DNA of 24,000 nucleotides, from assembly GCA_031277795.1 (NCBI GenBank), contig JAITLQ010000015.1, positions 193,667 to 217,666 of the forward strand. The letters run 5' to 3'. Every line of letters begins with the position of its first letter. Within the stretch, counting starts at the first letter, position 1. The DNA comes from Arthrobacter sp. (GTDB taxonomy: Bacteria > Actinomycetota > Actinomycetes > Actinomycetales > Micrococcaceae). Made by a program: the position numbers and the translations under genes. The notes under the pieces were generated by a model. The model made no database searches, was not told where the DNA came from, and was given only the letters and a program-made list of their open reading frames with translations. Positions 1,998-21,521 of this stretch are shown one piece after another.

Positions 1998-2052
1998 GCG
2001 ACCCGGCGCCGTCGGGCACTGGGCGATGCCCGGCCCCACCGCGCGATGCCCG

Positions 2053-2133
2053 GCCACCCGCCGTCGGCCAGGATGCCCATTCCACCTGAATCCACCAGAT
2101 CCACGCGGGGACCTCCGGGGATCTGGTGGATTC
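2053..2133 (+). repeat. Intergenic element: GCCACCCGCCGTCGG flank followed by a 15-bp-stem hairpin (variant of the palindromic element family seen at 17623 and 19993)
   Basis: GCCACCCGCCGTCGG at 2053-2067 matches 17623-17637 exactly. GAATCCACCAGATCC (2088-2102) is the reverse complement of GGATCTGGTGGATTC (2119-2133), followed by GTGGGG. A further CGCCGTCGGGCAC 13-mer lies at 2007-2019. Confidence 0.55.
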
Positions 2134-2160
2134 GTGGGGCATCGTGGGCGGCGTGACAGC

Positions 2161-3381: not shown

Positions 3382-3393
3382 CTGCCGCGCGGC

Positions 3394-4074: not shown

Positions 4075-4239
4075 GAGGTCTCCTGATCGGGATGCGAGTG
4101 ACACCCGATGGTCGCATGCGCGCCCGCCTCCGCGCCGCGCGCCACGGCGTGCGGGCTAGCCGTGCCCATGACGGATGTCATGCCGAGGTCGTGACACCCC
4201 CGGGATCCGCACGGGCCGCGGCGGCGGCAGGCTGGAGCC

Positions 4240-5151: not shown

Positions 5152-5154
5152 GCC

Positions 5155-5910: not shown

Positions 5911-5926
5911 GGGCACGGATACGCTC

Positions 5927-7087: not shown

Positions 7088-7111
7088 GGCGCGGGGCCGT
7101 CGCGATGCTGC

Positions 7112-7166
7112 CCACGCGGTTCGTTGACTTCCACGCGATGCGTGCGGGAGAGAACGAACCGCGTGG
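7112..7166 (+). other. 14-bp-stem hairpin in the unusual 145-bp kinase-regulator spacer
   Basis: CCACGCGGTTCGTT (7112-7125) is the reverse complement of AACGAACCGCGTGG (7153-7166). The 27-nt loop carries the palindrome CACGC-GAT-GCGTG (7132-7144). Confidence 0.6.
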
Positions 7167-7232
7167 CTTCGGCAGCAACGGGCTGGGCCCACATGGGCTG
7201 GGCGGGAACAAGAGCACTGACGGAGGTACACG

Positions 7233-7841
7233 GTGAGCATCAGGCTGGTCCTGGCGGACGACCAGGCACTCGTGCGCGGCGCGCTCGGTGCGCTGCTCGA
7301 GCTGGAGGGGGACCTCACGGTCGTGGGGGAGGCGCCCGACGGCGCCGGCGCCGTGGAGCGTGTGCGTGAGCTGCGCCCCGATGTGTGCCTCATGGACATC
7401 CAGATGCCGGGGATGGACGGGCTCGAGGCCACCCGCCTGGTGAAGGCGGCGAGCCCCGAGACCAAGGTGCTCATCGTGACCACGTTCGCCCGTCCGGGCT
7501 ACCTGCGGACGGCGCTCGAAGCTGGAGCGAGCGGCTTTGTGGTGAAGGACGCCCCGGCCGAGCAGCTCGCCGACGCCGTCCGCCGCGTGCACTCCGGGCT
7601 GCGCGTGGTGGATCCGGCGCTCGCCGAGGCCACGCTCTTCGAGGGCTCCAACCCGCTCACCGAGCGGGAGGCGCAGGTGCTCAAGCTGGCCCTGGACGGC
7701 CGCTCGGTCGCGGACATCGCCACGGAGGTTTTCCTCTCCGCCGGGACGGTGCGTAATCACCTCTCGAGTGCGATCGGAAAGACGGGCGCGCAGAACCGGG
7801 CGCAGGCCGCGCTCGCCGCGCGCGAGAAGGGCTGGATCTAG
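7233..7841 (+). CDS. Response regulator, NarL/LuxR family
   Basis: GTG at 7233 is preceded by GGAGG (7222-7226). The receiver motifs are LADDQ and CLMDIQMPGMDG. The C-terminal LuxR HTH reads LTEREAQVLKLALDGRSVADIATEVFLSAGTVRNHLSSAIGKTG. Confidence 0.95.
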   Translation: MSIRLVLADDQALVRGALGALLELEGDLTVVGEAPDGAGAVERVRELRPDVCLMDIQMPGMDGLEATRLVKAASPETKVLIVTTFARPGYLRTALEAGASGFVVKDAPAEQLADAVRRVHSGLRVVDPALAEATLFEGSNPLTEREAQVLKLALDGRSVADIATEVFLSAGTVRNHLSSAIGKTGAQNRAQAALAAREKGWI

Positions 7842-7890
7842 CCGACGTGCGCGGCGGCGGGTGCGCCCGGTACCGTGCGGTCGCTCGCGG

Positions 7891-9252
7891 CTACTCCTCC
7901 TCGAGTGCTAGTTCCGCCGGCTTCACGCGGAAGCCGCGTGTCGTGACGGCGAGCCACCCGGCGCCCAAGGCGAGCCAGGCGAGCCCCACCACGAGCGCCG
8001 GGAGCGACAGCGACGTCCACAGCCACACCGTCAGGGCGCAACCGATGCCGGGGAGCACTCCGTAGCGCAGCCCCGCGAGCGCCCCGCGGCGTTTCTCATC
8101 GATCAGGAAGTGCTTGATCACCGCGAGGTTCACGAGCGTGAACGCCGCGAGCGCGCCGAAGTTGATGAGGGAGGAAGCGAACGTCAGGTCGACGAACAGG
8201 GCGACGAGCGCCACGGCCGCGATGACCAGCGTTGACCCCACCGGCGTACCGAAGCGCGCCGAGAGCGTGCCGAACACGCGTCGCGGCAGCAGGCCGTCGC
8301 GGCCCATGGCAAAGAGCACCCGCGCGGCCGTGGCCTGCTGGGCCATGACGGCGCCGAAGCAACCGGCCACGAAAGCCGCGGTGAAGAAGGCGGTGAGCAG
8401 GTGCCCGCCGGCCGCCCCGACCACGTCGTTCGCCGCGGCATCGGGCGAGGTGTAGGCCCGCCAATCGGGGAACACCACCTGGCTGAGCCAGGACACCACG
8501 ATGAAGAGCACGCCGCCGCACAGCGTGACCAGCACGATCGCCCGTGGCACGGTGCGCGCCGGATCCTTGGTCTCCTCGGCGATCGAGGCCACGGCGTCGA
8601 AGCCGAGGAAGGAGTAGCAGAGCACGGCGGAACCGGCCAGGAGCGTGGCCACCCCGGTGTCCCCGGCGGGAACGGCGGCCACGGTGCCGCCCAACACGGG
8701 CTGGAGCGCCAGGAAGGCGAACACGACGAGGAAGACGACCTGCGCCGCGACGATGACATTGCTGACGCGGGAAAGCAGCTTCACGCCCGTCACGTTCAAC
8801 AGGGTGACGAGCACCAGCGCCGCCAGGATCCACACGGCCTGCGGCACGGCGGGCACCGCGGCGTGCAGGTACACGCCGATGACGAGGTAGGCCATCATCG
8901 GCAACAACACGTAGTCGAGCAGGATGGTCCAGCCGCCGAGGAAGCCGGCGTGGGCGCCGAAGGTCAGGCGCGTGTAGGAGTACGCGGCGCCCGCCTTCGG
9001 GTGGGCGCCGGCCATGGAGGCGTACGACGTCGCCGTGAACAGCATGGCCACGAGTGTCACCACGTACGCCAGGACGATCCGACCGTCCGTGAGCGTGTTG
9101 ACCACGCCGTAGGTCGTGAAGGAAGCCATGGGCATCATGTAGGCCAGGCCAAAGCCGAGCGCCCCGAGCAGGCCGCGCGAGCGGACGAGCGTGGGCCGCG
9201 CGGCAGCCGCGGTCGTGACCCCGCTCCCGGCCTGGCCCGTCGAGTTGCTCAT
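7891..9252 (-). CDS. APC-family amino acid/polyamine permease
   Basis: ATG at 9252 is preceded by AGGAGGTGG. The 453-aa polytopic protein contains ...AGAAYSYTRLTFGAHAGFLGGWTILLDYVLLP.... The track ORF 7891..10512 is over-extended through the upstream gene. Confidence 0.88.
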   Translation of the reverse strand: MSNSTGQAGSGVTTAAAARPTLVRSRGLLGALGFGLAYMMPMASFTTYGVVNTLTDGRIVLAYVVTLVAMLFTATSYASMAGAHPKAGAAYSYTRLTFGAHAGFLGGWTILLDYVLLPMMAYLVIGVYLHAAVPAVPQAVWILAALVLVTLLNVTGVKLLSRVSNVIVAAQVVFLVVFAFLALQPVLGGTVAAVPAGDTGVATLLAGSAVLCYSFLGFDAVASIAEETKDPARTVPRAIVLVTLCGGVLFIVVSWLSQVVFPDWRAYTSPDAAANDVVGAAGGHLLTAFFTAAFVAGCFGAVMAQQATAARVLFAMGRDGLLPRRVFGTLSARFGTPVGSTLVIAAVALVALFVDLTFASSLINFGALAAFTLVNLAVIKHFLIDEKRRGALAGLRYGVLPGIGCALTVWLWTSLSLPALVVGLAWLALGAGWLAVTTRGFRVKPAELALEEE

Positions 9253-10403
9253 GCTCCCACCTCCTGCATGGCGCGTTCCGAGTCGGCCCCGGCGCCGCCG
9301 AGCAGCCCCGAGTAGTCGAGGGCCACGCGCGGCGTCACGCACGGATTGCCCTCGGCGAGGTGCAGCACGCGCGCGGCCGGGTCGATCACCACGGACATGA
9401 TGGAGGCCCACTGCGAGGCCTCGGGCGAGCGCGGATCCGGGTGGCAGCAGATGGAACCGGGGGCATCGGTGTGATCGGTGAGCGCCTCGTGCAGCTCCGC
9501 CACGCCCACCACGGGATCGGCCTGCACCAACGATGTCAGCCGGCCCAGGCGCACATAGGAGTCGGACATCGCCACGGGCGCCAGGTCGGCGCCGCCGACC
9601 AGCGGCGAGACGAAGTGGTTCGTGTGGAACGTGGCCCCGCCGGATTCGATCACCGGGTGCACGCCCTCGGGCCCGCCCGGCTCCACCTCCACGTTGAGGA
9701 TCGCCCCGTTCTCGGTGCCGAGCACGTAATTGCCGGAGGAGGCGCGCCGGTGCCCGGCCAGCAGCTCCACGGCGTCGTACGCGTGCTCGCAATCGGCCAT
9801 GGCCCGCAGCATGACGTGGAACGGGACGCCGTCGGCGATCCCGTCCGCCGTGGTGACGAGCGTGTTGACGCAGAGCCCCAGCCCGGCCGCGTTGAGCATC
9901 GTCTTGCCGAGCAGACCGGCCTCCACGATGGTGACGTAGTTGGGCCCGTCCTCGCGCTCGACCTCCAGCAGGATCACCGAGTCGAAGGCGTGCACGAGCC
10001 AGTCCCAGTTCTGCCCGATCAGCGCGCGGTGCACCTCGGTGCGCTCGGGCGAGAGGGCAAAGGAACTGCACTCGCCCTTCGAGGAGCCGGCCCCGGCCGG
10101 GGTGTCGGTCAGCGCAGACCACAGGATCTCGGTGCGGCAGTTCATCGCCAGGACGTCGGCCACGGGCAGGCCGGAGCCCGCCGCGATGCCCTCGATCTCC
10201 CGCCAGATCGCGGGGAAGGCGGCGCGGATGGGCGCCTCGTGGCGCGCGGCGAGGCCCACGGCGTCGGCCCACGAGATGCCCTTGGCGGCGAAGCTCGCCT
10301 CGTAGCCGGCGCGGGCGGCGGCGATCTGCTCGGCCGCGAGGCGCCCGTACTGCTCGCCGCGCTCGCGCGGCGCGCCGGAGACGCGGATGCGGGGATACCC
10401 CAT
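9249..10403 (-). CDS. Peptidase C45 / acyl-CoA:6-aminopenicillanic-acid acyltransferase-like Ntn hydrolase
   Basis: Begins MGYPRIRVSG...RERGEQYG... A candidate autoproteolytic/nucleophile Cys sits at about residue 112 (SSKGECSSFAL), followed by IGQNWDW and a later GNYVLG. The stop overlaps the permease ATG (ATGA at 9249-9252). Confidence 0.75.
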   Translation of the reverse strand: MGYPRIRVSGAPRERGEQYGRLAAEQIAAARAGYEASFAAKGISWADAVGLAARHEAPIRAAFPAIWREIEGIAAGSGLPVADVLAMNCRTEILWSALTDTPAGAGSSKGECSSFALSPERTEVHRALIGQNWDWLVHAFDSVILLEVEREDGPNYVTIVEAGLLGKTMLNAAGLGLCVNTLVTTADGIADGVPFHVMLRAMADCEHAYDAVELLAGHRRASSGNYVLGTENGAILNVEVEPGGPEGVHPVIESGGATFHTNHFVSPLVGGADLAPVAMSDSYVRLGRLTSLVQADPVVGVAELHEALTDHTDAPGSICCHPDPRSPEASQWASIMSVVIDPAARVLHLAEGNPCVTPRVALDYSGLLGGAGADSERAMQEVGA

Positions 10404-11509
10404 CAGGCCCTCCCGAGGAGTCGCTGGATCGGGTCGAGGGACCAGACGCCCTCTTCGCCCGATGGCGTGGCCTCGTCTTCCGGCGCGGCTTCCGCTGGGC
10501 TGGGGGAGGCACTGCCCGACGGCGCGGGGCCGGCCTGGGCGCTCGCCTCGCCGCCCGCGGCGGCCGCGCTGGAAGCCGCCCGCACGTCGTCGAGCACCGA
10601 GGCCGGCAGGAAACCGGGCGCCTGCGCCCGTGGCAGCGTGCCCGTGAGCTCGCCCCGGGCGGCCAACGCGGCGACCTCGGCGGCGGTGCCGATCCAGGCG
10701 CCGGCGGCTTGCAGGTGCGTGATGACGCGCTCGATGAAGGCCAGGCGCGAGGGGCGGCCGGAGATCATGGGGTGGAAGGTGGTCATGACGTGGCCGCCGA
10801 GCGCGGCGATGCCGTCGATCTCGGGCTGCCAGACCTCCCAGACCTCGCGCGGGGAGCGGATGGTCTTGTCCCAGGTGTCGTTGGCGAACCAGAAGTGCGG
10901 GGCGTCGTCGAGGATCCACGAGACGGGCACCTCGGTGAGGGGATGGCTCTCGTGGCGGTACGGGCGGATGTCGTTGAGGAGATTGGAGCTGTACGTCAGG
11001 CCGGCCTCGGTGAGCAGGTCAAGGGTGTGGGCGCTGAAGTCCCACGAGGGGGAGCGGTAGCCCGTGACCTCGGCGCCGAGCGAGCGGAGCGTGTGCAGGC
11101 CCTGGTGCAGCTCGGCTTCCTCCTCCTCGCGCGTGAGGAGCGTGGGGGAGGTGTGCGAGTGGCCGTGGTGGGCCACCTCGTGGCCGGCGACCACGATGGC
11201 GCGGACCGCCTCCGGGTGGCGCAACGCGTCCTTGCCTGGAACGTAGAAGGTGGCCTTGACGCCCGTGCGCTCGAGCAGATCGAGGATCAAGGGGATGGCC
11301 ACGCGCGGGCCGTAGGCGCCCTGGGAGAGGACGCCGGGGCGGGAGGCGTTCTCGGGGTTCTCCCCGATCCAGACCTCTTCGGCGTCGAAGTCGAAGGACA
11401 GGGTGGCGCCGAAGGGGGCGCCTGTGGGCCAGGTGGGGGCGGTGAACGGGGTGGACAAGCTATCGCCTCGATCGGTGGCAAGTGAGTGGTCTACCTCACT
11501 ATGCGTCAC
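10403..11509 (-). CDS. Polysaccharide deacetylase (NodB-homology / CE4-like) family protein with an Ala/Pro/Ser/Glu-rich C-terminal tail
   Basis: Motifs LSFDFDAEE, VKATFYVPG, AGHEVAHHGHSH and GYRSPSWD are present. The start is uncertain: GTG 11509 as in the track, or a TTG 17 codons downstream with GAGG upstream. The stop overlaps the next ATG by 1 nt (TGATG at 10401-10405). Confidence 0.8.
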   Translation of the reverse strand: MTHSEVDHSLATDRGDSLSTPFTAPTWPTGAPFGATLSFDFDAEEVWIGENPENASRPGVLSQGAYGPRVAIPLILDLLERTGVKATFYVPGKDALRHPEAVRAIVVAGHEVAHHGHSHTSPTLLTREEEEAELHQGLHTLRSLGAEVTGYRSPSWDFSAHTLDLLTEAGLTYSSNLLNDIRPYRHESHPLTEVPVSWILDDAPHFWFANDTWDKTIRSPREVWEVWQPEIDGIAALGGHVMTTFHPMISGRPSRLAFIERVITHLQAAGAWIGTAAEVAALAARGELTGTLPRAQAPGFLPASVLDDVRAASSAAAAGGEASAQAGPAPSGSASPSPAEAAPEDEATPSGEEGVWSLDPIQRLLGRA

Positions 11510-12136: not shown

Positions 12137-12161
12137 GTGGAGGGCGCTTCCCGCCCTCCAC
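12137..12161 (+). other. 10-bp GC-rich stem-loop in the presumed 5' leader of the PHP pair
   Basis: GTGGAGGGCG (12137-12146) is the reverse complement of CGCCCTCCAC (12152-12161), with a 5-nt loop. It ends 32 nt before the GTG start. Confidence 0.5.
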
Positions 12162-12193
12162 CCGCCACCGCCCGTGCACACCGGAGGAATACC

Positions 12194-13240
12194 GTGCCCC
12201 CACTTGCGACCGTCAGCGGCGCCCTCGACCCGGCCCTCGTGCGCGGCGCCACCAGCGCCGGAGACCACCTCATCGGCGCGCTGCCCGCCACCCCGGGCGA
12301 GCGCGCCACGGACGTCTACTTCTTCGAGGCCCCGCTGACCCTCGAACGGCTCGGCGACGCCATGCTCGGCCGCGCCAACCGCGAGGACGCCACGCTCACG
12401 CCGGACACCGCGGCCGCCGAGCTCGAGGACTTTGCCGAGGCCGGCGGCGTGCTTGCCGTGGAGCTCACCCCGCTCGCGGCCGGGGCTGATCTCGCGGCGC
12501 TCGCCGGGGTCGAGGCGGCCAGCGGCGTGCGCATCGTGGCCTCCGCGCATGCCGGCGAGGGGCCGCTGGCGCTGCGGCTCGGGCCCGGTCGCGCTGGGGT
12601 GATCGTGCTGGGCCCGGCGGCCGAGCCCGCCGCCCGCGAGGAGGCGCTTGGCCTCGCCGCGCGCGGCGTTCCCGTGATGCTCGACGCCGCGTGGCTGGGT
12701 GGGGCCGAAACCTCACCGGGGCCGGTCGCCGGGGCGGGCGACCCCGTGCACGACGCCAGCGCCGCGGCGGGCGGAGCGGGCCGCGGCGCCGGTGCCGCCG
12801 CTGTCGCCCCGGCGCCGCTCGGTGCGCTGCACGAGCTGCTCGACACCGCGGAGGCGGCCGGGGTGCCCGCCGACCGCCTCGCCGTGCTCGGCGCCCGTTC
12901 CCTCGCCCACCGCCCCGACGCGCTGTCCGAGCTGGCGGCGCGAGGCGTCTACCTTCACTTCGGCTCGCTGGGCCGCATCCCTTCCGTGTACACCGAGGTG
13001 AGCGATCACGACGTCGCCGTGTCGCTCGCCGCGCTCACCGAGGCCGGCCACGGGGAGCGGTTGTTGCTCGCCGCCGGCCTGGATCGCCGCCACGCCCTGC
13101 GCGCCCACGGCGGACACGGGCTGGGCTTCCTGCCCCGTCAATTCCTTCCCTATCTCGGCTTCATGGGCATCGGCGCCGACGCGGCCGGTGTCCTCGCCTC
13201 CGACAACCTCGTCCGCTTCCTGGATTGGAGCCGCCCGTGA
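12194..13240 (+). CDS. Phosphotriesterase-homology (PHP/PTE, amidohydrolase superfamily) paralog with degenerate metal-binding residues
   Basis: GTG at 12194 is preceded by GGAGGA (12183-12188). The N-terminus LATVSGALDPALVRGATSAGDHLIG aligns with the family pattern TV.G.I....LG.T..HEH, but HEH has become GDH. The C-terminal region GHGLGFLPRQFLPYLGFMGI...NLVRFL parallels the downstream paralog. Confidence 0.7.
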   Translation: MPPLATVSGALDPALVRGATSAGDHLIGALPATPGERATDVYFFEAPLTLERLGDAMLGRANREDATLTPDTAAAELEDFAEAGGVLAVELTPLAAGADLAALAGVEAASGVRIVASAHAGEGPLALRLGPGRAGVIVLGPAAEPAAREEALGLAARGVPVMLDAAWLGGAETSPGPVAGAGDPVHDASAAAGGAGRGAGAAAVAPAPLGALHELLDTAEAAGVPADRLAVLGARSLAHRPDALSELAARGVYLHFGSLGRIPSVYTEVSDHDVAVSLAALTEAGHGERLLLAAGLDRRHALRAHGGHGLGFLPRQFLPYLGFMGIGADAAGVLASDNLVRFLDWSRP

Positions 13241-14385
13241 GCTCGCCCGCCGCCCCCGCGCCCCACGCCGTCGTGCCCTCCTCTCCGGCGGCGGCGCCGG
13301 CACCCGCGGTCACGACTGCCCCGGCGGGCGCCGTGCCCAACCTGGCCGGGCGCGTCCTCACGGTGGCCGGCCCGGTGGAGCCGGCCGCGCTGGGGCAGGT
13401 CTCGATGCACGAGCACGTCTTCCTCGACATCGTGCGTCCGGCCCACAACCCGCGCCCCGGCTACGACGCTCCGGCCGCGAGAGAACCGCTGGGCCTGCAG
13501 AACCTCGCCGCCGTGCGCGCCGGCGCGGCGCTCTACGCCAACGACCGGCTGGGCGACCCGGCGCTCATGGCACGCGAGGTCGGCGCCTTCCGCGACGCCG
13601 GCGGCGGCGCGCTGGTTGAGCTCTCCAACCTGGGCCTCGGGCGCGACGCGGAGGCGCTGCTGGGGCTCTACCGGACCACCGGGCTGCACGTGGTCATGGG
13701 CGCCGGCTGGTACGAGCGCGAGTTCCACCCAGCCGACATGGATCAGCGCAGCGTCGAGGAGCTGACGGGGATCATCGTCCGCGACATCGTCGAGGGCGTG
13801 GACGGCACGGGGATCCGCGCCGGGATCATCGGCGAGGTGGGCGTGGACGGGAATCCGCTGACCGCCAACGAGCTGAAGTCGGTGCGGGCCTCGGGCCGGG
13901 CCGCGCGGATCACGGGCGCGCCCATCAGCTTCCACCGCGGCGGCGCGGGGGAGGAGCAACACCGGGTGCTCGACGTCCTCGAGGAGGAGGGCGCCGACCT
14001 TTCGCGCGTGGTCATGGGGCACGCGGGCACCGTGGGGCACGACCTCGCGTTTGCGCGCCGGCTCCTGGCGCGCGGCGTGAGCGTGGAGTTCGACTTCCTG
14101 GGCACCACGGGCTCACCGTGGGGCACGCTCTTCCCCTTCACCGATCGCACCGTGGCGCGCGGCATCCTGAACCTCGTGGAGGACGGGCACGCCGGGCGGA
14201 TCGTGCTGGGCCACGATGTGTGCCAGGCGATCCAGCTCGCGGCCTTCGGCGGGCACGGCTACGGCTATCTGCACCGGCACTTCCTGCCGGAGCTCGTGCG
14301 CATGGGCCTGGACCCGGCGCTGCTGCGGACGTTCCTCGTGGAGAATCCGGCCCGCTTGCTGACGTTCGGGGCGCCTAGGCCATGA
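13237..14385 (+). CDS. Phosphotriesterase-homology protein (PHP/PTE family hydrolase), apparently catalytically intact
   Basis: GTG at 13237 overlaps the upstream stop (GTGA). After a Pro/Ala-rich leader of about 35 aa come LTVAGPVEPAALGQVSMHEHVF, GIIGEVG, ISFHRG, VVMGHAG and VLGHDV, the full ligand set as in E. coli PHP-type proteins. The 3' end overlaps the convergent gene by 11 nt. Confidence 0.85.
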   Translation: MSSPAAPAPHAVVPSSPAAAPAPAVTTAPAGAVPNLAGRVLTVAGPVEPAALGQVSMHEHVFLDIVRPAHNPRPGYDAPAAREPLGLQNLAAVRAGAALYANDRLGDPALMAREVGAFRDAGGGALVELSNLGLGRDAEALLGLYRTTGLHVVMGAGWYEREFHPADMDQRSVEELTGIIVRDIVEGVDGTGIRAGIIGEVGVDGNPLTANELKSVRASGRAARITGAPISFHRGGAGEEQHRVLDVLEEEGADLSRVVMGHAGTVGHDLAFARRLLARGVSVEFDFLGTTGSPWGTLFPFTDRTVARGILNLVEDGHAGRIVLGHDVCQAIQLAAFGGHGYGYLHRHFLPELVRMGLDPALLRTFLVENPARLLTFGAPRP

Positions 14386-15247
14386 GCTCTTCGGCCGTCC
14401 GGAGCATCTCGTCGATGGAGCCCTCGGGGTCGGTAATGGGGGCCTGCGCGGCGCGGATGATCCCGGCGTCGTCAACGAGGAGCGAGACGCGCTTGTAGCG
14501 TTCAAGCCCGCCGACCCTGAAGACGGGCAGGCGCAGGGCCACGGCGAGCTCGGCGTCGGCGTCGGAGAGCAAGGGGTAGTTCAGGCCGGCGTGCTCGGCG
14601 AAGCGCGCCTGCTGCTCGCTGCGCTGAGTGCTGATGCCGAAGACGCGCACCCCCTGGGCGCGCAGGGCCGGTTCCGCCTCCGCGTAGCTCGTCGCCTCGA
14701 CCGTGCATCCGGCCGTTCCCTCGATGCCGCTCCAGCCGGCGGGGTAGCCGTCCTCGGCGGGGGCGAAGGCTCCGGGAAAGAGGAAGAGGACGCTCCAGGC
14801 GCCCGGCTCGCTCAGGCTGTACCGGGCGCCGTCGTGGCCTTGAAGGCTCAGGGTGGGCACCTTGGTGCCCACGAGCGCTGCGGTGCGCTGTGCCTCGGCG
14901 TCCGTGGGGTGCGCGGTGAGCGTGCCGTCGCCGGCCACGAAGCGGTCCCCCCATTCCTGTAGGGCCAGGAGGACGGGCAGGGAGGCGCGGCCCATGGCGG
15001 TGAGGTCGTACTCGTAGCGCGGCGGGTGCTCTTGGTAGGCGCGGCGCTGGAGGATCCCGTCGGCCTGGAGCGAGGCGAGGGTCTCGGTGAGGGCGCGGCG
15101 GGAGATGCCGAGCGCCTTGGTGATCGCGTCGAAGCGCGTGGTGCCTGCCGCGATTTCGCGCAGGATGAGGAAGCCCCAGCCGTCGCCGAGCACGCCGAGG
15201 GCCTGGGCGATGCCGCAATCGCTGCCGCGCAGTTCGCTCGTGCGCAT
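14375..15247 (-). CDS. Fusion protein: N-terminal HxlR-type winged-helix regulator plus C-terminal Bcp/AhpC-TSA-like peroxiredoxin (redoxin) domain
   Basis: ATG at 15247 is preceded by GAAGGAG. The HxlR signature is DCGIAQALGVLGDGWGFLILREI...TRFDAI...GISRRALTETLASLQADGILQR...YEYDLT. The Prx signature is WSVLFLFPGAF...GTAGCTVEA...VRVFGISTQRSEQQARFAEHAGLNYPLLSD...RVSLLVD. Confidence 0.8.
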   Translation of the reverse strand: MRTSELRGSDCGIAQALGVLGDGWGFLILREIAAGTTRFDAITKALGISRRALTETLASLQADGILQRRAYQEHPPRYEYDLTAMGRASLPVLLALQEWGDRFVAGDGTLTAHPTDAEAQRTAALVGTKVPTLSLQGHDGARYSLSEPGAWSVLFLFPGAFAPAEDGYPAGWSGIEGTAGCTVEATSYAEAEPALRAQGVRVFGISTQRSEQQARFAEHAGLNYPLLSDADAELAVALRLPVFRVGGLERYKRVSLLVDDAGIIRAAQAPITDPEGSIDEMLRTAEELMA

Positions 15248-15263
15248 GGACGCTCCTTCGTTT

Positions 15264-15309
15264 TTGGCGTGGCTTCTCTCCGAGTCTATAGTCAGTTCCA
15301 AATTGGAAC
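15264..15309 (+). promoter_or_regulatory. Candidate MFS promoter (TTGGCG-17nt-TATAGT) followed immediately by the 7-1-7 palindrome GTTCCAA-A-TTGGAAC
   Basis: The -35-like TTGGCG is at 15264-15269, the -10-like TATAGT at 15287-15292, and the perfect palindrome at 15295-15309. All lie in the 79-bp divergent gap between the HxlR-Prx and MFS genes. Confidence 0.5.
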
Positions 15310-15326
15310 CCACTAACGAGGTGCGC

Positions 15327-16715
15327 ATGAGCCAGAACGGACAACCCGGGCTGCAGGACAACGGAATCGCGAACCCCTCTGAAGACTCAACGGACAACCC
15401 CATTGAAGGGGAGCGCGGCGGGTCAGCGGGCCCCGGCCCGGCCCAGCTCGGCCCGGACCAGCTCGGCCCGGCCCAGCGCTTCCGGCGCTACTGGACCTCG
15501 CGCACGGCGGGCTCGCTCGCCGCTTCGGTGACCTCGGTGTCGCTCTCGCTGCTGGCCGTGGTGCAGTTGCAGGCCGACGCTTCGCTCGTGGGGGTCGTGG
15601 CCGCCGCACAGGACGCCGCCTGGCTGCTGCTCTCCCTGCCCATCGGTGCCGTGCTGCACCGCCTGCCGATGCGGGCCCTCCAGATCGCGGTGGACCTGGC
15701 CAGGGCCGGGATCGCGCTGGCGCTCGTCGCGGCCGCCGTGGGCGGGCTGCTCGGCCTGCCCCAGCTGTTGCTCTCCGCGGCGCTCCTGGGCGTCGCCGCC
15801 GTGATCTTCGACCTCGCCAACCAGTCCTACCTGCCGCGGATCGTCCCCGCCGAGGAGCTGCAGCGCCGCAACTCAACGATCTCGGCGACCGACGCCGTCA
15901 CCACGATGGGCGGCGGCGGCCTCGCGGGGTTCCTGGCCCAGGCGGTTGGTGCCGCGGGGGCGCTGCTCGTCTCCGCCGTGGGTTCCGTCGTCTCGGCGCT
16001 GGCGCTGCGCTCGCTGCCGGCAGGACGGCAGGCGGGCGGCCAGGAGGGAGAGTCGGCGGGCGCCGCGGGCGCCGAGCCCGCACCACGCGAGCCGATGCTC
16101 GCCGCCATCGCCACGGGCTGGCGCTACGTCATGGGCCACCGGGTGCTGCGTCCCGCCACGCTCTCTGTCACGGTGCTCAACTTCCTCTGCGGCGCCCAGC
16201 TCACGCTCTTCCCGCTCTTCCTGGTCCGCGAGCTCCGCCTGCCCGTGGGCTGGGTGGGCCTGCTCCTCGCCTCGGACGGCGTGGGCTCGCTGATCGGCGC
16301 GGTCCTCGCCACGCGCGTCGCGGCTCGGTGGGGCACGGCGAGGGCCAGCGTCATCGCCACATGTGTGGTGGTGGTCGGTGCGGCGGTCATCCCGCTCGGG
16401 GCGGCGTACGGCGCGGCGATCGGCGCCGCGTTTTTCCTGGCCGGCAATGTGCTCTTCGCCGGGGGCGTGGTGATCATCAGCATCGTGACGCGCACCTACC
16501 GCATGCGAACCACGCCGGAGGAGCTGCTGCCGCGCGTCATCTCTACGGTGCGCTTCGTCTCCTGGGGCGGCATCCCGATCGGGTCGCTCCTGGCCGGCGT
16601 GGCCGCCTCGGCCTGGGGCACGACGGTGTCCCTGTGGGCGTGCGCCGCGATCGCCCTCGGCGGGCCGGCCCTTCTGCTGGCCGCGCGCGCCTTCAGGGTG
16701 CGCGAGCTGGGCTGA
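15327..16715 (+). CDS. MFS transporter (EntS/MFS_3-like exporter type) with a low-complexity N-terminal extension
   Basis: ATG at 15327 is preceded by GAGG. The 462-aa protein has about 12 hydrophobic segments and includes FRRYWTSRTAGSLA.... The track ORF from 15087 is over-extended. Confidence 0.85.
   Translation: MSQNGQPGLQDNGIANPSEDSTDNPIEGERGGSAGPGPAQLGPDQLGPAQRFRRYWTSRTAGSLAASVTSVSLSLLAVVQLQADASLVGVVAAAQDAAWLLLSLPIGAVLHRLPMRALQIAVDLARAGIALALVAAAVGGLLGLPQLLLSAALLGVAAVIFDLANQSYLPRIVPAEELQRRNSTISATDAVTTMGGGGLAGFLAQAVGAAGALLVSAVGSVVSALALRSLPAGRQAGGQEGESAGAAGAEPAPREPMLAAIATGWRYVMGHRVLRPATLSVTVLNFLCGAQLTLFPLFLVRELRLPVGWVGLLLASDGVGSLIGAVLATRVAARWGTARASVIATCVVVVGAAVIPLGAAYGAAIGAAFFLAGNVLFAGGVVIISIVTRTYRMRTTPEELLPRVISTVRFVSWGGIPIGSLLAGVAASAWGTTVSLWACAAIALGGPALLLAARAFRVRELG
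15434..15478 (+). repeat. In-frame 15-bp tandem repeat x3 inside the MFS N-terminus
   Basis: The units are CGGCCCGGCCCAGCT / CGGCCCGGACCAGCT / CGGCCCGGCCCAGCG, encoding GPAQL-GPDQL-GPAQR. Confidence 0.9.
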
Positions 16716-16754
16716 TCCCTGGCGGCGGGGCGGGAGGGCGGTTAGCTTGGGGGC

Positions 16755-17618
16755 ATGCTTCCAGCCCACGAACCCACCCTGCGCGGCGAGGGTGTGGTGC
16801 TTCGGCGCCACACGCACGACGATGCGGCGCTCGTCCGCGCCGCCGGCGCGGACGCGTACATCACCTCGGTGACGACGGTGCCCCCGGCACCGGCGAGCGA
16901 CGCCGAGGTGGTCGCTTACATCGCCAGGCAGCACTCGCGGCTGCCAGCGGGCCAGGGCGTGCAGCTCGTCATCGAGGATCAGGCGTCGGGCGTGGCCGTG
17001 GGGCAGATTGGGCTCATGGTCAAGGGTGTCCACCGGGCCGCGATCGGCTACTGGGTGGACCCCGGCGCGCGGCGGCGGGGCTACGCGGGGCGGGCCGCGA
17101 GGGTCCTCAGCGCGTGGGCGCTCGGCCTGCCCGGGCTACACCGGCTCGAGGCGAGCGTTGAACCGTGGAACGAGGGCTCGATGCGCGCCGTCGAGTCAGC
17201 TGGTTTCGTCCGGGAGGGCGTGGCGGCCAACTGGGAGCTCGTCGCCGGCGAGCCCAGGGACATGGTCATCTACGCGAAGGTCCCGGACGGGCACCGCGGC
17301 TGGGAAGCTCAGGCGCGGGAGTTCCAGACCGGCATGCCGCTGACCGAATGGAACGAAGCGGACCGAGAGGGGCGACTCACCTTGCAGTTGTGGGCGGTGG
17401 GGAGCGGGGAAGACGCCCTCCTTCGCCTGGCCCGCGGGGAGGAGCTCACCGACGCGGATCTCCTGTACCTAGCCTGGCTCAATTCGCTCGCCATCGAGAC
17501 CGGCTACCGCCCGCCGTGTGCCATCACCCCCGGCGGCGCGCGGATCGACGATGTGGCGCAGGAGATCCTTCTCAAGCGCTTCGGCCCCACCGGCACCCAC
17601 GTGCCGGGCGTCGACTGA
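16755..17618 (+). CDS. GNAT family N-acetyltransferase (RimJ/RimL-like) with an uncharacterised C-terminal extension of about 110 aa
   Basis: The GNAT core is LRGEGVVLRRHTHDD...IGYWVDPGARRRGYAGRAARVLSAWAL...HRLEASVEPWNEGSMRAVESAGFVREG. The reading frame then continues for about 110 residues with no family I recognise. Confidence 0.85.
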   Translation: MLPAHEPTLRGEGVVLRRHTHDDAALVRAAGADAYITSVTTVPPAPASDAEVVAYIARQHSRLPAGQGVQLVIEDQASGVAVGQIGLMVKGVHRAAIGYWVDPGARRRGYAGRAARVLSAWALGLPGLHRLEASVEPWNEGSMRAVESAGFVREGVAANWELVAGEPRDMVIYAKVPDGHRGWEAQAREFQTGMPLTEWNEADREGRLTLQLWAVGSGEDALLRLARGEELTDADLLYLAWLNSLAIETGYRPPCAITPGGARIDDVAQEILLKRFGPTGTHVPGVD

Positions 17619-17622
17619 CCCA

Positions 17623-17725
17623 GCCACCCGCCGTCGGGCACCGAAAGACCAAGATCGGAGTGCCTTGGGTACGCTTTTTGGCCAAAAAGCGTACCCAAGG
17701 CACTCCGATCCTGGGGGAAAACGGG
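17623..17725 (+). repeat. Palindromic intergenic element, copy 1 (REP/MITE-like): conserved flank plus perfect 58-bp palindrome
   Basis: The structure is GCCACCCGCCGTCGGGCAC (17623-17641), then 11 nt, then GATCGGAGTGCCTTGGGTACGCTTTTTGG|CCAAAAAGCGTACCCAAGGCACTCCGATC (17653-17710), then CTGGGGGAAAA. It starts 5 nt after the GNAT stop, between convergent genes. Confidence 0.9.
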
Positions 17726-17864
17726 GAAGGGCAGGCGCCCCGTGGTGGTGACGACCCCACGCAGCCGGGCAAGAGCCCGACGGCGCGTGGTTGCCACCGC
17801 GCGAGGCAAGGGTCCGCACCCCTGCGCCTCGCCACGGGGCGCCCGCCCGGTTGAGGGGCGACGC

Positions 17865-18932
17865 CTAGACGTCGATCGCGAGCTTCGCGGAGAGCGCGCG
17901 CGAAACGCACACGAGCATGCACCCGCCCGTGGCGCGCTCGGCCTCGGTGTAGAGGTCGTCGCGGTGGTCCACCTCGCCGTCAACGACCCGCACCTCGCAC
18001 GTGCCGCAGAAGCCCATCTCGCAGGAGCTCGGGTGGTCAACGCCGGCGCGGCGGATGGCCTCGAGGGCCGTCTCGTCGGCGCCGACCTCGACCTCGAGCC
18101 CCGAGGCGGTCAGCGCCAGCGTGAACCCGCCGGAGCCGTCCGTCGCCACGGCCACGGGGGCCGGCGCGAAGAGCTCGAGGTGTAGGTCGTCGGCGCGGCC
18201 GGCGTCCTCCATCAGACCCGTCAGCGCGTTCATGAGCCCGCCGGGCCCGCAGCAGTACACCTGCGCGCCAGTGCTGCCGGCCACGACGGCCGCGAGGTCC
18301 GGGTGGCCGGCCACGTCCTGCGGCACGAGCACCACATTCTCTCCGCCAAACTCCATGAGCTCGGCCAGGAAGGCGAAGTGATCGTTGGATCGCGCGGCGT
18401 AGACGAGTCGCCACGGCTTGCCGGCCCGTTGCACCTCGCGCGCCATGGCCAGCATGGGCGTGATGCCGATGCCGCCGGCCACGAACACGTACTTCTCGGC
18501 GTCCTCGAGCTCGAAGTTGTTGCGCGGGGCGGAGACGGTCAGCTCCACGCCGGCCCGCAGCTCGCGGTGCACCTCGCGGGAACCGCCGCGGCCGTCCACC
18601 ACCTCCAGCACGCCGATCCGATAGTGCGAAAGATCGGAGGGATCCGAGCAGAGCGAATACTGGCGCACCACCCCGGAGTGCAGGTGCACGTCCAGGTGCG
18701 ATCCCACGCTCCACGCGGGCAGCGTGCCCCCGCCTACCGGCACCAGCTCGTACGAGGTGATGCCGGCGGCCGTGCGGCGCGTGCCCTCCACGCGCACCAC
18801 GAAGGTGGCAGCGCGCTCCGAACCCGGCCCCACGCCGTCGGGCAGCAGCCCCGAAGCGGGCTCAACGTCTGAAGCGGGCGCAGCATCTGCGGCGGGCGCC
18901 GTGGCGCCCGGCCGCTCCGTCACTGTGGTCAC
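17865..18932 (-). CDS. PDR/VanB-type oxidoreductase (flavin reductase domain plus plant-type [2Fe-2S] ferredoxin domain)
   Basis: RQYSLCS is the flavin-binding RxYS motif and GGIGITPMLAM the NAD(P)H-binding motif. The C-terminal CEMGFCGTCE...MLVCVS supplies the cluster cysteines. The GTG start at 18932 lies 5 nt after the oxygenase stop. Confidence 0.9.
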   Translation of the reverse strand: MTTVTERPGATAPAADAAPASDVEPASGLLPDGVGPGSERAATFVVRVEGTRRTAAGITSYELVPVGGGTLPAWSVGSHLDVHLHSGVVRQYSLCSDPSDLSHYRIGVLEVVDGRGGSREVHRELRAGVELTVSAPRNNFELEDAEKYVFVAGGIGITPMLAMAREVQRAGKPWRLVYAARSNDHFAFLAELMEFGGENVVLVPQDVAGHPDLAAVVAGSTGAQVYCCGPGGLMNALTGLMEDAGRADDLHLELFAPAPVAVATDGSGGFTLALTASGLEVEVGADETALEAIRRAGVDHPSSCEMGFCGTCEVRVVDGEVDHRDDLYTEAERATGGCMLVCVSRALSAKLAIDV

Positions 18933-18937
18933 GGTGA

Positions 18938-19969
18938 TCAGCCCTGGACCTTGGTCATGAGCTCGTTGAAGCAGCGGCGGTAATTGAGCGTGAAGAGGTC
19001 GGCCGGGACGGAGAACTCCTGGACCTCGGCGTCCCAGGGGATCTCACGCGGGAAGACGCCGTCAACGATCGAAAGGTCCTCGCGGTAGACCATGTCCTCC
19101 ACGCGCAGGCATTCCTCGAGCGAGGCGCCCTTGTAACCCACCTGGTTGGCGACGCCCCAGAAGATCTTGACCTCCTCGTAGGAGACCGGCGACGGGAAGC
19201 CCGCCACGACGCGCTTGCCGAGGCGCTCGTAGTCGTAGGTGATGGAGGCCAGGCCGGGCGCCGAGCAGAAGTAGTGCATCATCGCGTTGCCGTCCTCGGC
19301 CCACTCGCCCGTGGAGGCGTTGAGCGGGCGATCCATCCAGACGTTGAGCCCCTCACGCACGGGCGTCAGCGGCTCCACGACCTCGGGGCTCGGCCCCATC
19401 GAGACCTGGTGCACAAACGGGAAGTGCGCCACGTCGCGGAAGTTCTCCACGGTGATGGCCACGCCCACGGCGGAGTCGAGGATGTCGCCGGCGAGCCACT
19501 CCCATTCAACGCCCTCCCAGTACGGGACCTCGTACACATCGCGGATCGGGTCCTCGAGGACGGTCCAGACGTGGCCGTACTTCAGCTGCACGGGGTAGGT
19601 CTTGATGGCGGCCTGGGGCGGGATCTTCGACTGGTCCTCGAGCGAGGGGACGCGCACGCAGGCACCGTCCGCCGCGCCAAACTGCCAGCCGTGGTACGGG
19701 CAGCCGATCGACTTTTCATGGACGGCGCCGGCGGAGAGATCAGCGCCGCGGTGCGGGCAGCGGCGGTCCTGGACGGCCACGGTGCCGTCGCCCGAGCGGT
19801 AGACGACCAGGTCGACGCCCAGCAGCGTGGCGCGCTGCGGCTTGTCCAGGTCGACGATGCGGGCCACGGGGAACCAGCTCTGGCGCATGGCCTGCTCGGC
19901 GAGCTCGCGCTTGGTGCGCTTGGCCGCCGGGGCGGCGCCGGCCTGCGGGTGAGGGGCGGTGGTGGTCAT
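18938..19969 (-). CDS. Rieske [2Fe-2S] non-haem-iron oxygenase, VanA/PaO-like (class IA monooxygenase/demethylase type)
   Basis: ATG at 19969 is preceded by AGGAG. The Rieske motif is CPHRGADLSAGAVHEKSIGCPYHGWQF and the mononuclear iron motif ENFRDVAHFPFVH (E-x3-D-x2-H-x4-H). The track ORF to 20953 is over-extended. Confidence 0.9.
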   Translation of the reverse strand: MTTTAPHPQAGAAPAAKRTKRELAEQAMRQSWFPVARIVDLDKPQRATLLGVDLVVYRSGDGTVAVQDRRCPHRGADLSAGAVHEKSIGCPYHGWQFGAADGACVRVPSLEDQSKIPPQAAIKTYPVQLKYGHVWTVLEDPIRDVYEVPYWEGVEWEWLAGDILDSAVGVAITVENFRDVAHFPFVHQVSMGPSPEVVEPLTPVREGLNVWMDRPLNASTGEWAEDGNAMMHYFCSAPGLASITYDYERLGKRVVAGFPSPVSYEEVKIFWGVANQVGYKGASLEECLRVEDMVYREDLSIVDGVFPREIPWDAEVQEFSVPADLFTLNYRRCFNELMTKVQG

Positions 19970-19992
19970 GGGGTACTCCTGTGGGTCTGTGG

Positions 19993-20096
19993 GTTTTTTT
20001 CCCCGCTTCGGAGTGGGTTGGGTACAAAAAACGGCCGAAAAGCGTACCGAACCCACTCCGATCCTTGAGGGGGGTGAGTGCCCGGCGGCGGGTGGC
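19993..20096 (-). repeat. Palindromic intergenic element, copy 2 (inverted orientation, partly degenerate)
   Basis: The minus strand reads GCCACCCGCCGCCGGGCAC (20096-20078), then 14 nt, then GATCGGAGTGGGTTCGGTACGCTTTTCGGCCGTTTTTTGTACCCAACCCACTCCGAAGC, then GGGGAAAAAAA. The arms at 20008-20025 and 20044-20061 are 17/18 complementary. It sits between the SDR and Rieske genes. Confidence 0.85.
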
Positions 20097-20118
20097 CGGG
20101 TCGGGCAGGGGAGGCGGC

Positions 20119-20895
20119 TTAGGCGCCCACGACGAGGGCGCCGCCGTTGACGGAGAGGGTCTCGCCCGTCATGAAGGACGCGGCATCGGAGGCGAGGAAC
20201 GCCACGACGGACGCGATCTCCTCCGGCTCGCCCAGTCGACCGAGCGGCACGGCGGCGACCTCCATCTCGTAGGCCTCCTCCGGCACCATGCGCGTGCGGA
20301 TGGCTCCCGGGGCGATGGCGTTCACGAGGATCCCGTCGGCCACGAGGGCCTTGGAGAGCGCCTTCATGAGCGCCAGCTGCGCCGCCTTGGAGGTCATGTA
20401 GCCAAAGGAATGCCCGTCCGGCACCTGCCCCCACTGGGAGGAGATGAAGACGATGCGGCCCACCGAGGACGCTCGCAGCGCCGGCACCGCGGCCCGGGAG
20501 AGGGCGTAGGGCGCCTGCACGTTGACCTTGAAGTAGGCCTCCAACGAGGCCGGCTCGGTCTCCTCGAGCGTGCGGAAGTCGTGCATGATGCCGGCGTTGT
20601 GCACCAGCACGTCCAGAGCGCCGAAGTTCTCCAGCGCCACCGACGCGAGGTGCTCGGGCGCCCCGGCCTCGGTGATGTCGCCGGCCACGGAGGCCACGTC
20701 GGCCCCGGCCGCGCGCAGCTCGTCCGCCGTGCGGGAGAGCTCGTCGGCGTCCAGATCGGCGAGCACCAGGCGGGCGCCCTGGGCGGCCAGAGCGCGGGCG
20801 TGGGCGGCCCCCATGCCGCGGGCGGCCCCGGTGATGAGCGCGACGCGGCCGGAGAGCGGCTTGGCCGCCGCCGCCGAGTTCACTGCCTGGTTCAC
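20119..20895 (-). CDS. Short-chain dehydrogenase/reductase (SDR, FabG-like)
   Basis: TGAARGMG matches the TGxxxGxG motif. NAG and the catalytic YMTSKAA (YxxxK) are present. GTG at 20895 overlaps the upstream stop (GTGA). Confidence 0.92.
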   Translation of the reverse strand: MNQAVNSAAAAKPLSGRVALITGAARGMGAAHARALAAQGARLVLADLDADELSRTADELRAAGADVASVAGDITEAGAPEHLASVALENFGALDVLVHNAGIMHDFRTLEETEPASLEAYFKVNVQAPYALSRAAVPALRASSVGRIVFISSQWGQVPDGHSFGYMTSKAAQLALMKALSKALVADGILVNAIAPGAIRTRMVPEEAYEMEVAAVPLGRLGEPEEIASVVAFLASDAASFMTGETLSVNGGALVVGA

Positions 20896-21365
20896 AGCGC
20901 GGCCGGGTTGCCGGAGGCGATGCCGGCGCTCGCGCCCGCCCCGACGACCGCACCGGACTCGTGCGGTTCGGTCACGTAGATCATGTTGCCGTCCGGGTCG
21001 AAGAACGCGCGGTACTGGTACCAGCGCCCCGAGGGGTGCTCCCATACGGTCTTCTCGCCCGTGACCCACTGGACCTTCCCGTCCAGCTCGGCGTAGGCCT
21101 CGTCGAGGGAATCGACGGCAAACGCGATGGAGTCGTAGCCCTGCGGGTCCTGCTCGTTGATGCCGGTGCGGCGGAAGACCGGGGCCGCGTGCTCGGTGGC
21201 GAAGAGGTACAGGGTGAGGTTGCCGAAATCGATGGCGGCCCACCCCTCCCCGGGCTCGAAGGGCAAGAAGAAGTCCAGGCCAAGGGTCTGCGTGTAGAAC
21301 TCGACCATCTCGTCGAAGTTGTTGGACAGGATGTCCATGTTGTCGATGCGCTTGAGCTTCAGCAC
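20892..21365 (-). CDS. VOC (glyoxalase/bleomycin-resistance/extradiol dioxygenase) family protein
   Basis: GTG at 21365 is preceded by AAAGGAG. LKLKRIDNMDILSNNFDEMVEFYTQTLGL is a typical VOC N-terminus, followed by ...SIAFAVDSLDEAYAEL...FFDPDGNMIYV. The product is 157 aa. Confidence 0.85.
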   Translation of the reverse strand: MLKLKRIDNMDILSNNFDEMVEFYTQTLGLDFFLPFEPGEGWAAIDFGNLTLYLFATEHAAPVFRRTGINEQDPQGYDSIAFAVDSLDEAYAELDGKVQWVTGEKTVWEHPSGRWYQYRAFFDPDGNMIYVTEPHESGAVVGAGASAGIASGNPAAL

Positions 21366-21490
21366 GTCGGCTCCTTTGTTGCTGTTCCCCCGCCCGGTTT
21401 TTGGGCGCAGTGGGGGAGGGACTGATGGGGTGTCGCGTCGGGGACAGTGCCCGACGCCGGGTGCTCGCCTCGGCGAGCGGAAGGCGCGTG

Positions 21491-21513
21491 GGTGCGGGGC
21501 CGGGCCCCGCACC
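21491..21513 (-). terminator. GC-rich hairpin 9 nt downstream of the APC permease stop (candidate U-tract-less terminator/attenuator)
   Basis: The sequence GGTGCGGGGCC-G-GGCCCCGCACC has perfect 11-nt arms. No T-run follows. Confidence 0.4.
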
Positions 21514-21521
21514 TCACGGGC

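Follow-up and report, generated by a model that had tools for sequence, protein, structure and literature searches.

The window analyzed here, a 24,000-nucleotide stretch of DNA from Arthrobacter sp. (contig JAITLQ010000015.1), carries on its minus strand a gene (14375..15247; 290 amino acids (aa) plus stop codon) whose product joins an HxlR-type DNA-binding domain to a peroxiredoxin (Prx)-like domain. The two domains form one genuine, conserved polypeptide with recognizable folds and two conserved cysteines, and it is accompanied by a conserved palindrome and promoter and by a partner gene encoding an MFS transporter. Its domain content and its putative sensing cysteine place the protein in the HxlR/DUF24 family, and its sequence is best read as that of a DUF24 thiol switch to which a peroxidase-fold sensor has been fused, a variant on a known regulator type. 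It is probably a self-contained oxidant sensor. The most likely mechanism, to which we would give an even chance, is that of an autoregulated thiol-based one-component repressor in which a sensor built around Cys181 of the Prx-like domain communicates with Cys11 of the DNA-binding domain.

An earlier sequence-only reading of this DNA had placed both domains on one polypeptide, and Pfam agrees: HxlR (PF01638) matches residues 19-104 (E 8.8e-23; 80.4 bits vs. a cut-off of 20.8), while Redoxin (PF08534; residues 126-277, E 8.6e-17) and AhpC-TSA (PF00578; residues 178-266, E 4.2e-18) also lie above their gathering cut-offs. The sequence features described there (HxlR signature, N-terminal Cys, Prx motifs, 79-bp gap, palindrome and TATAGT box) were likewise all correct. 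On the minus strand, the winged-helix DNA-binding domain of the HxlR/MarR-DUF24 type occupies 14936..15193, a linker conserved in the family alignment (residues 105-125) occupies 14873..14935, and the BCP/PrxQ-like peroxiredoxin-fold domain (residues 126-277), also recognized by Foldseek, occupies 14417..14872. Translation begins at an ATG at 15247 that is preceded by the Shine-Dalgarno (SD) sequence GAAGGAG. The longest mechanical reading of the open reading frame would allow a start as far upstream as 15403, giving 342 aa; the 290-aa start is preferred because of the SD sequence, the homolog lengths of 290-305 aa, and the independent gene calls on an identical public contig, where the same 290-aa gene, identical in sequence, was annotated.

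The architecture recurs widely, as a query across genomes proposed in the sequence-only reading now confirms. A protein database search with the fusion returned 541 proteins or clusters at E <= 1e-5 among the scored candidates, and both an HxlR and a Prx-type Pfam domain were present in all of the 120 matches listed. Every named organism among the matches was an actinobacterium; the genera include Micromonospora, Actinoplanes, Dactylosporangium, Catenuloplanes, Knoellia, Luteipulveratus, Nocardioides, Agromyces, and Planosporangium, with more distant members in Streptomyces and Kitasatospora. Relatives were found in 288 species in a scan of one genome per species, which added Janibacter, Promicromonospora, Microbispora, and Nonomuraea and gave its best match (93% identity) in a Galactobacter metagenome-assembled genome, a match that probably places the window in the Micrococcaceae. 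The 93%-identical ortholog was found in four other contigs, and full-length homologs from finished genomes number in the hundreds. With the same architecture in over 500 protein clusters and in the genomes of 288 species, the fusion is not a frameshift artifact, and the joining of two genes by a frameshift or mis-assembly, which the sequence-only reading had considered, is ruled out by the identical independent call, the 93%-identical ortholog and the hundreds of full-length homologs. When clustered at 50% identity the family shrinks to a handful of representatives, and it is therefore a compact clade. The linker itself contains invariant (G108, E118, R121, L125) and nearly invariant (G106, D107, A112) residues, which argue against a floppy accidental junction.

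Some members carry the JGI product name 'DNA-binding HxlR family transcriptional regulator/peroxiredoxin,' while NCBI names them generically as winged helix-turn-helix (wHTH) regulators or redoxin-domain proteins. A search of the literature, with subscription-only papers outside its coverage, returned no study of the HxlR-peroxiredoxin fusion architecture and no characterized member. The fusion type is thus widespread and already labeled in databases, yet unstudied in the literature searched; the statement in the sequence-only reading that no characterized member was known holds for that literature, whereas the architecture itself already had a name in JGI.

The protein contains exactly two cysteines, Cys11 in helix alpha1 (codon 15215..15217, minus strand) and Cys181 at the peroxidatic position of a GCTxE motif (codon 14705..14707, minus strand). 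In an alignment of 134 fused homologs, on which all residue counts given here are based, Cys11 is invariant (134/134) and Cys181, the cysteine of the GCT motif, is conserved in 131; in 77 of the 134 these are the sole cysteines. Cys11 aligns with the redox Cys14 of Bacillus subtilis HypR/YybR. The nearest PDB relatives of the HxlR domain are PA1607 (2f2e), 4gcv, HypR/YybR (4a5m), and HxlR (7bze), with YodB also related. Closest among the solved structures are the Pseudomonas proteins PA1607 and 4gcv (E 4e-25 to 9e-31 with the family profile), which keep the N-terminal Cys and have a short C-terminal extension that aligns with the linker and first strands of the fusion; unlike the fusion, they are 146-168 aa long, lack a complete Prx domain, and are uncharacterized.

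The N-terminal helix-alpha1 Cys of MarR/DUF24 regulators senses oxidants and electrophiles (PMC7835342; PMC6798810). In YodB, this involves intersubunit disulfides between Cys6 and Cys101' or Cys108' (PMC6798810; PMC7835342), the latter two being positioned just past the last helix (PMC6798810). The Prx-like domain of the fusion is joined, in topology, where Cys101 and Cys108 of YodB sit, such that the partner Cys that follows the last helix in YodB would here reside in a whole Prx-like domain. The fusion has the same Pfam wHTH domain and N-terminal Cys as YodB, CatR, and HypR of B. subtilis, QsrR of Staphylococcus aureus, and HxlR, and like these DUF24 regulators it is associated with a palindromic operator overlapping a promoter. 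The DUF24 regulators, in contrast, are single-domain proteins of 105-130 aa without a peroxidase-fold domain, and their regulons comprise quinone, azo and nitro reductases and dioxygenases, whereas the partner of the fusion is an MFS pump.

The fold of the C-terminal domain is that of a peroxiredoxin. Foldseek matched it to 3hjp, 5epf, 5enu, and 3drn (E ~1e-9 to 1e-11; target-normalized TM-scores of 0.79-0.85), with Sulfolobus Bcp4, Mycobacterium tuberculosis (Mtb) BcpB (5epf), and Burkholderia 5enu among the matches. The motifs DCGIAQALGVLGDGWGFLILREI, GTAGCTVEA, VFGIS, and YPLLSD were all confirmed in the fusion protein. Cys181 lies at the peroxidatic position in a GC(T)xE context, with a predicted helix beginning at residue 183, and its surroundings are strongly retained: E184 is found in 134/134 homologs, T182 in 131/134, and R253, which aligns with the catalytic Arg in the 'ERSTFLID' segment of 5enu, in 133/134. 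An AlphaFold2 (AF2) model of the fusion protein has a mean predicted local distance difference test (pLDDT) score of 79.6, with most of the Prx domain at 80-95, and includes a short helix at linker residues 117-123. A family-specific insertion of 16 residues (residues 164-179; 14711..14758, minus strand), identified by alignment with canonical BCPs, separates FPGAFAP from GCT in the window protein. W172 and G177 of this insertion are invariant and P169 and P176 nearly so, and no counterpart was seen in any solved structure among the PDB relatives of the Prx domain.

The resolving cysteine has mostly been lost. The position that it would occupy in the CP-X4-CR arrangement of peroxidatic (CP) and resolving (CR) cysteines, residue 186, is Thr in the window protein and Thr, Arg, Met, or another non-Cys residue in other members, three of which have a Cys at 185 instead; the CR (GCTLESC) is kept in only 5/134 members, within a Streptomyces/Kitasatospora clade. 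Standalone Prx-like relatives of ~192 aa carry the same insertion together with IPGARGCTPQSC, a CP-X4-CR pair. Because the CR is found in both the standalone and the Streptomyces/Kitasatospora proteins, the ancestral domain seems to have been an atypical 2-Cys BCP, converted to a 1-Cys form once fused. This pattern is the one expected if another thiol resolves the oxidized Cys.

The standalone insert-bearing proteins (P0128-P0137) appear uncharacterized. Their genes have a conserved arrangement in loci L084-L087, where a beta-ketoacyl synthase (KAS) gene, the Prx-like gene, an NAD-synthase-like gene and a DUF456 gene occur together. A split pair of HxlR and Prx genes was looked for beside these relatives, and none was found in the four loci, the context being that of KAS, NAD-synthase-like, and DUF456 genes instead.

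The divergent intergenic control region between the fusion gene and the MFS gene (79 bp; 15248..15326) contains a perfect palindrome, GTTCCAAATTGGAAC, at 15295..15309, supported by both the sequence and a comparative motif scan and extended imperfectly to 15289-15315 (13-1-13, 85%). Next to it lies a shared -10 element (15285..15292), which reads TATAGT on the plus strand toward the MFS gene (15287-15292) and TATAGA on the minus strand toward the fusion gene (15290-15285). TTGGCG-17-TATAGT, on the plus strand and facing the MFS gene, is the only sigma70-like promoter match within 14200-17900. The exact sequence GTTCCANNNTGGAAC occurs once in the 24-kb window. With two or fewer mismatches there are two matches vs. 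0.35 expected, the second of which (two mismatches) lies inside the GNAT coding region and was taken as chance.

The sequence-only reading had assigned the fusion its own palindromic operator, and comparison across genomes bears this out. In 80 loci, the 250 bp upstream of the fusion gene were scanned with up to two mismatches allowed, and GTTCCA-N3-TGGAAC (GTTCCANNNTGGAAC) was found in 79, with 42 exact. The rest of the loci gave two matches in 671,610 positions, both within coding sequence and likewise taken as chance; the palindrome is thus far beyond chance expectation. The full consensus, (C)AGTG(A/C)GTTCCA-N3-TGGAAC(G/T)(G/C)ACTATAGT, has a fixed register between the operator and ACTATAGT. 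The latter is a -10 box that is itself a perfect palindrome in most relatives and other genera, with the result that TATAGT is read on either strand. At 18 loci, 16-18 nt separate the operator palindrome from the start codon of the fusion gene and 6-8 nt separate the -10 box from it, the short distance from box to start implying a leaderless mRNA; in the remaining loci a short SD leader follows the box. This placement indicates that the box is the regulator's own -10, with the operator filling the spacer and -35 region, and the abutting of box and operator together with the leaderless spacing implies autoregulation. The TATAGT box had been correctly noted in front of the MFS and GNAT genes, while its palindromic nature, its use as the regulator's own -10 and hence the autoregulation had been overlooked. 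By position, the operator would also cover the transcription start of the opposite, MFS promoter. Conservation of the palindrome at the promoter strongly implies that it is the binding site of the fusion protein, and on comparative grounds we take it to be a real, family-wide operator. In Streptomyces sp. cg36 (L088), a variant with 5-nt spacing (AGTGAGTTCC-N5-GGAACGGACTATGT) is found, also with a divergent MFS gene. A separate inverted repeat of 11 nt (GCTCGTGCGCA/TGCGCATGAGC; 91%) at 15236-15246 and 15322-15332 flanks the gap and spans both divergent starts; it could be a chance occurrence or a second symmetric element.

Divergent from the fusion gene, with its ATG at 15327, is a gene for a 462-aa MFS_3/DHA3-type transporter (15327..16715, plus strand; Pfam MFS_1 and MFS_3, TIGR00900). 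A divergent ortholog with 40-47% identity to that of the window was present in 61/80 loci, including every non-Micromonospora locus, and the pump is on this evidence the conserved partner and predicted target gene of the fusion regulator. The sequence-only reading had named an exporter and an acetyltransferase as the likely outputs; both annotations were confirmed by Pfam and the exporter stands as the conserved partner, whereas the GNAT acetyltransferase gene lies beside the MFS gene only in L001/L004 and is confined to the 93%-identical relative. The window MFS protein also has an N-terminal extension of ~50 aa (15327-15480) with a short GPGPAQLGPDQLGPAQ repeat, absent from its orthologs, which begin near the FW(R/T)(W/Y)W motif.

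Taken together, these features suggest the following sequence of events. The N-terminal winged helix would presumably dimerize as in its relatives, and the dimer would most likely bind AGTnnGTTCCA-N3-TGGAACnnACT, adjoining the -10 box predicted to be used by both divergent promoters. Because the box serves the regulator and MFS promoters alike, the bound protein should shut off both genes and so act as a repressor. The signal would be an oxidant, either peroxide or another thiol-reactive oxidant, that oxidizes Cys181 through peroxidase-type reactivity of the Prx-like domain. Oxidized Cys181, which has no resolving Cys nearby in most members, would then be resolved by Cys11, probably of the opposite subunit, and the putative Cys181-Cys11' bond would parallel the Cys6-Cys101' disulfide of YodB. 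Such a disulfide may distort the dimer, releasing the DNA and derepressing the regulator and the efflux pump. In its strictest form this would be a bacterial single-polypeptide relay, in which Cys181 captures peroxide and passes the oxidation to Cys11, derepressing both genes. The two-Cys set, the loss of the CR after fusion, the YodB precedent, and the retained Cys/Glu/Arg residues make a relay plausible, and we consider the strict form possible though doubtful.

Several observations weigh against a Cys181-based sensor. First, the active site is not that of a canonical peroxiredoxin. The 16-residue insertion splits the normally contiguous PxxxTxxC motif, between P158xxxA162P163 and G180C181. 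At the canonical Thr position, 119/134 members carry Ala; three residues before the Cys (-3), Ala is found in 120/134 and Thr in 13, including the window protein. Ala has taken the place of the catalytic Thr at the two candidate positions in ~90% of members. Given the split motif and the Thr-to-Ala changes, fast peroxide reactivity cannot be assumed. The peroxidatic-Cys context recognized in the sequence-only reading therefore stands as to Cys181 itself but not as to a canonical setting. The NCBIfam equivalog score is far under its cut-off (48 vs. 140 bits). 1-Cys BCPs exist, so the missing resolving Cys does not by itself exclude membership in BCP/PrxQ; because PxxxTxxC is not contiguous, however, the domain is not filed as a bona fide peroxiredoxin, and it is best described as a Prx-fold, divergent BCP-like domain with a non-canonical active site. 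Second, AF2 confidence is low in the linker (pLDDT 42; residues 100-114) and in the active-site loop (pLDDT 57-63). Third, Cys11 is kept across the HxlR family, including the unfused PA1607 and 4gcv, and is retained in the three members without Cys181 (P0085, which is C181S, and P0151 and P0157, in which the active-site region is degenerate); its conservation hence needs no relay. Fourth, a peroxide sensor would not usually have an efflux pump as its only output. Finally, ~17 Micromonospora loci retain the regulator and operator without an intact pump. The Micromonospora subclade in which the MFS gene is missing or a remnant comprises L010, L013, L015, L027, L029, L032, L033, L038-L040, L042, L045, L047, L054, L058, L061, L067, L076, and L083; the remnants encode 229 aa in L015, 206 aa in L045, 91 aa in L039, and 142 aa in L083, the last of which is apparently frameshifted.

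A competing explanation is direct sensing at Cys11, which quinones, electrophiles, or diamide would S-alkylate or oxidize as in QsrR and one-Cys YodB, with the Prx-like domain not the primary receptor but an accessory that might reset (reduce) Cys11 or detoxify the oxidant locally. Cys11 is invariant even where Cys181 is lost or the Prx domain is degenerate, the catalytic Thr is missing in ~90% of members, and a pump as output is easier to reconcile with a xenobiotic or an electrophile as the signal than with H2O2. Moreover, DUF24 regulators sense quinones and electrophiles via this Cys alone (PMC6798810). On the other hand, Cys181, E184, and R253 match Cys11 in conservation, which is hard to explain in a dispensable accessory; the members without Cys181 are just 3/134 and may be decaying copies; and the loss of the resolving Cys in most members favors hand-off to another thiol. 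We consider direct sensing by Cys11 unlikely, though it is the strongest of the competing explanations.

Alternatively, the protein could be a bifunctional 'trigger enzyme,' a working thiol peroxidase or reductase autoregulated by its own DNA-binding domain, with the enzyme itself as the chief product of the locus and the pump as a secondary passenger. This would fit the finding that every locus has the operator placed at the promoter of the regulator gene, which is often leaderless, the Micromonospora loci that keep gene and operator without an intact MFS gene, and the existence of standalone insert-bearing Prx relatives as apparent enzymes. An autorepressed gene expressed at regulator level, however, would be a poor source of a stoichiometric antioxidant enzyme, the canonical Thr is missing from the active site, and the pairing with MFS is kept in every non-Micromonospora locus; we regard an enzyme of this kind as decidedly unlikely.

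A non-redox role for the Prx fold, as a ligand-binding or dimerization domain in which binding of the pump substrate, perhaps in a pocket formed by the insertion, would make the repressor let go of its operator, seems improbable. It would make the cysteines structural. Regulator-pump pairs commonly sense the substrate of the pump, as in TetR/MarR systems, and the conserved insertion, with its W172, G177, P169, and P176, remodels the active-site pocket; both points count in favor of a ligand. Conversely, a near-invariant Cys/Glu/Arg set is typical of retained thiol chemistry rather than of a co-opted scaffold, and the minimal two-Cys pattern of 77/134 members also speaks against it. That the fusion is a sequencing or assembly artifact is refuted beyond practical doubt, with nothing found in its favor and an identical independent call, homologs from finished genomes, and invariant linker residues against it.

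Known systems resemble the proposed thiol-based repressor in part. BCP/PrxQ proteins (Escherichia coli Bcp, Mtb BcpB 5epf, Sulfolobus Bcp1/4, and Xanthomonas PrxQ) have in common with the fusion the fold, GCTxE(A/S), the Arg, and YPLLSD, and their CP-X4-CR arrangement is kept in the Streptomyces fusion members. Unlike them, the fusion has an insertion between (Y/F)Pxxx(T)P and GC, a Thr mostly replaced by Ala, a CR mostly lost, and an attached DNA-binding domain. OhrR, MgrA, and SarZ are redox-sensing MarR-type regulators (PMC6798810). They and the fusion, as proposed, would be alike in the thiol oxidation of a wHTH repressor; in OhrR, MgrA, and SarZ the sensing Cys lies within the MarR fold and there is no separate peroxidase-fold domain. 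MexR and MgrA/SarZ are reported to control efflux pumps.

In the eukaryotic relays Orp1/Gpx3-Yap1, Tpx1-Pap1, and Prx2-STAT3, a peroxidase passes oxidation to a transcription-factor Cys, and the logic proposed for the fusion is alike. The partners there are encoded separately and depend on scaffold proteins, Ybp1 or annexin A2 for example (PMC7481202), and the way that peroxidase and target are brought together is described as an open question (PMC7481202). The eukaryotic factors are bZIP or STAT proteins and the output is activation or nuclear retention, as opposed to an HxlR wHTH and derepression here. No homology to Yap1/Pap1 or to Orp1/Tpx1 was found, the DNA-binding domain being wHTH and not bZIP and the peroxidase-like domain BCP-like and not Gpx or typical 2-Cys Prx, and any resemblance to the Orp1-Yap1 and Tpx1-Pap1 relays is one of logic only. 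A further analogy is provided by roGFP2-Orp1 and the proposed roGFP-Prx probes, in which a peroxidase is tethered to a redox reporter and for which mutation of the resolving Cys has been discussed as an option (PMC4749873). That option has a natural parallel in the CR loss seen across most of the fusion family. These engineered probes report through a fluorescent protein, whereas the fusion has a DNA-binding domain.

The interest of a Prx-mediated relay lies in its departure from these precedents. To our knowledge, oxidant sensing in bacteria has been described as direct oxidation of transcription factors (OxyR, PerR, OhrR, DUF24 regulators), and we know of peroxiredoxin-mediated relays only from eukaryotes. 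If the relay is real, it would make the fusion the first bacterial transcription factor to sense oxidants via a Prx instead of directly, and a natural counterpart of the engineered roGFP2-peroxidase probes. A natural covalent fusion of Prx and regulator would constitute a minimal, genetically tractable relay, in which the tether gives specificity and the DNA target is defined by comparative genomics. It would make testable both the idea that loss of a resolving Cys redirects oxidation to a partner thiol and the use of a Prx fold without the canonical Thr as a sensor. The pair of operator and regulator might be usable for oxidant-responsive switches in actinomycetes, and, in antibiotic producers such as Micromonospora, Actinoplanes, Dactylosporangium, and Streptomyces, the family draws attention to an uncharacterized efflux pump with a putative link to redox stress.

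Other architectures were sought among HxlR proteins. Candidates of 310-350 aa for the reversed order, Prx-HxlR, in the representative search proved to be tandem HxlR-HxlR proteins. Such tandem single polypeptides were abundant in that search (P0162, P0165, P0166, P0176, and many others; 303-401 aa) and may be covalent 'pseudo-dimers.' Other C-terminal domains in the same HxlR clade were also looked for among matches of 160-350 aa, which gave only HxlR in Pfam (P0178 also AhpC-TSA); the matches inspected have C-terminal tails unlike those of the family and are most likely frameshifted or fragmentary metagenomic copies.

The GNAT acetyltransferase gene (16755..17618, plus strand; Pfam Acetyltransf_3, residues 15-152) is lineage-specific and stands outside the conserved module; it and the phosphotriesterase (PTE) genes were considered as parts of the module and dropped, as the 93%-identical relative alone shares them. 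The 39-bp gap between the MFS and GNAT genes contains no terminator-like site, one earlier match falling inside the MFS coding region, and a terminator-like inverted repeat with a hairpin and T-run on both strands lies just past the GNAT stop codon (17660-17703). This arrangement points to co-transcription, and GNAT is probably co-transcribed with MFS in this organism. The GNAT protein has a C-terminal extension of ~110 aa without a Pfam match, and its start in the independent gene call is 14 codons later (273 aa). On the other side of the fusion gene, and convergent with it, are two tandem PTE-family (PF02126) genes (12137-14385, plus strand), the second of which overlaps the 3' end of the fusion gene by 11 bp at its own 3' end (14375-14385). 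The flanks (1026-11060 and 17865-23168) are ordinary chromosomal context. Upstream genes encode an MpaB/Lcp-type oxygenase, an aminotransferase, an ABC-2 transporter pair, a HisKA_3/GerE two-component system, and an AsnC regulator, and downstream genes encode a Fer2/NAD-binding reductase next to a Rieske/VanA oxygenase (assigned by synteny with L001), an SDR protein, and an amino-acid permease.

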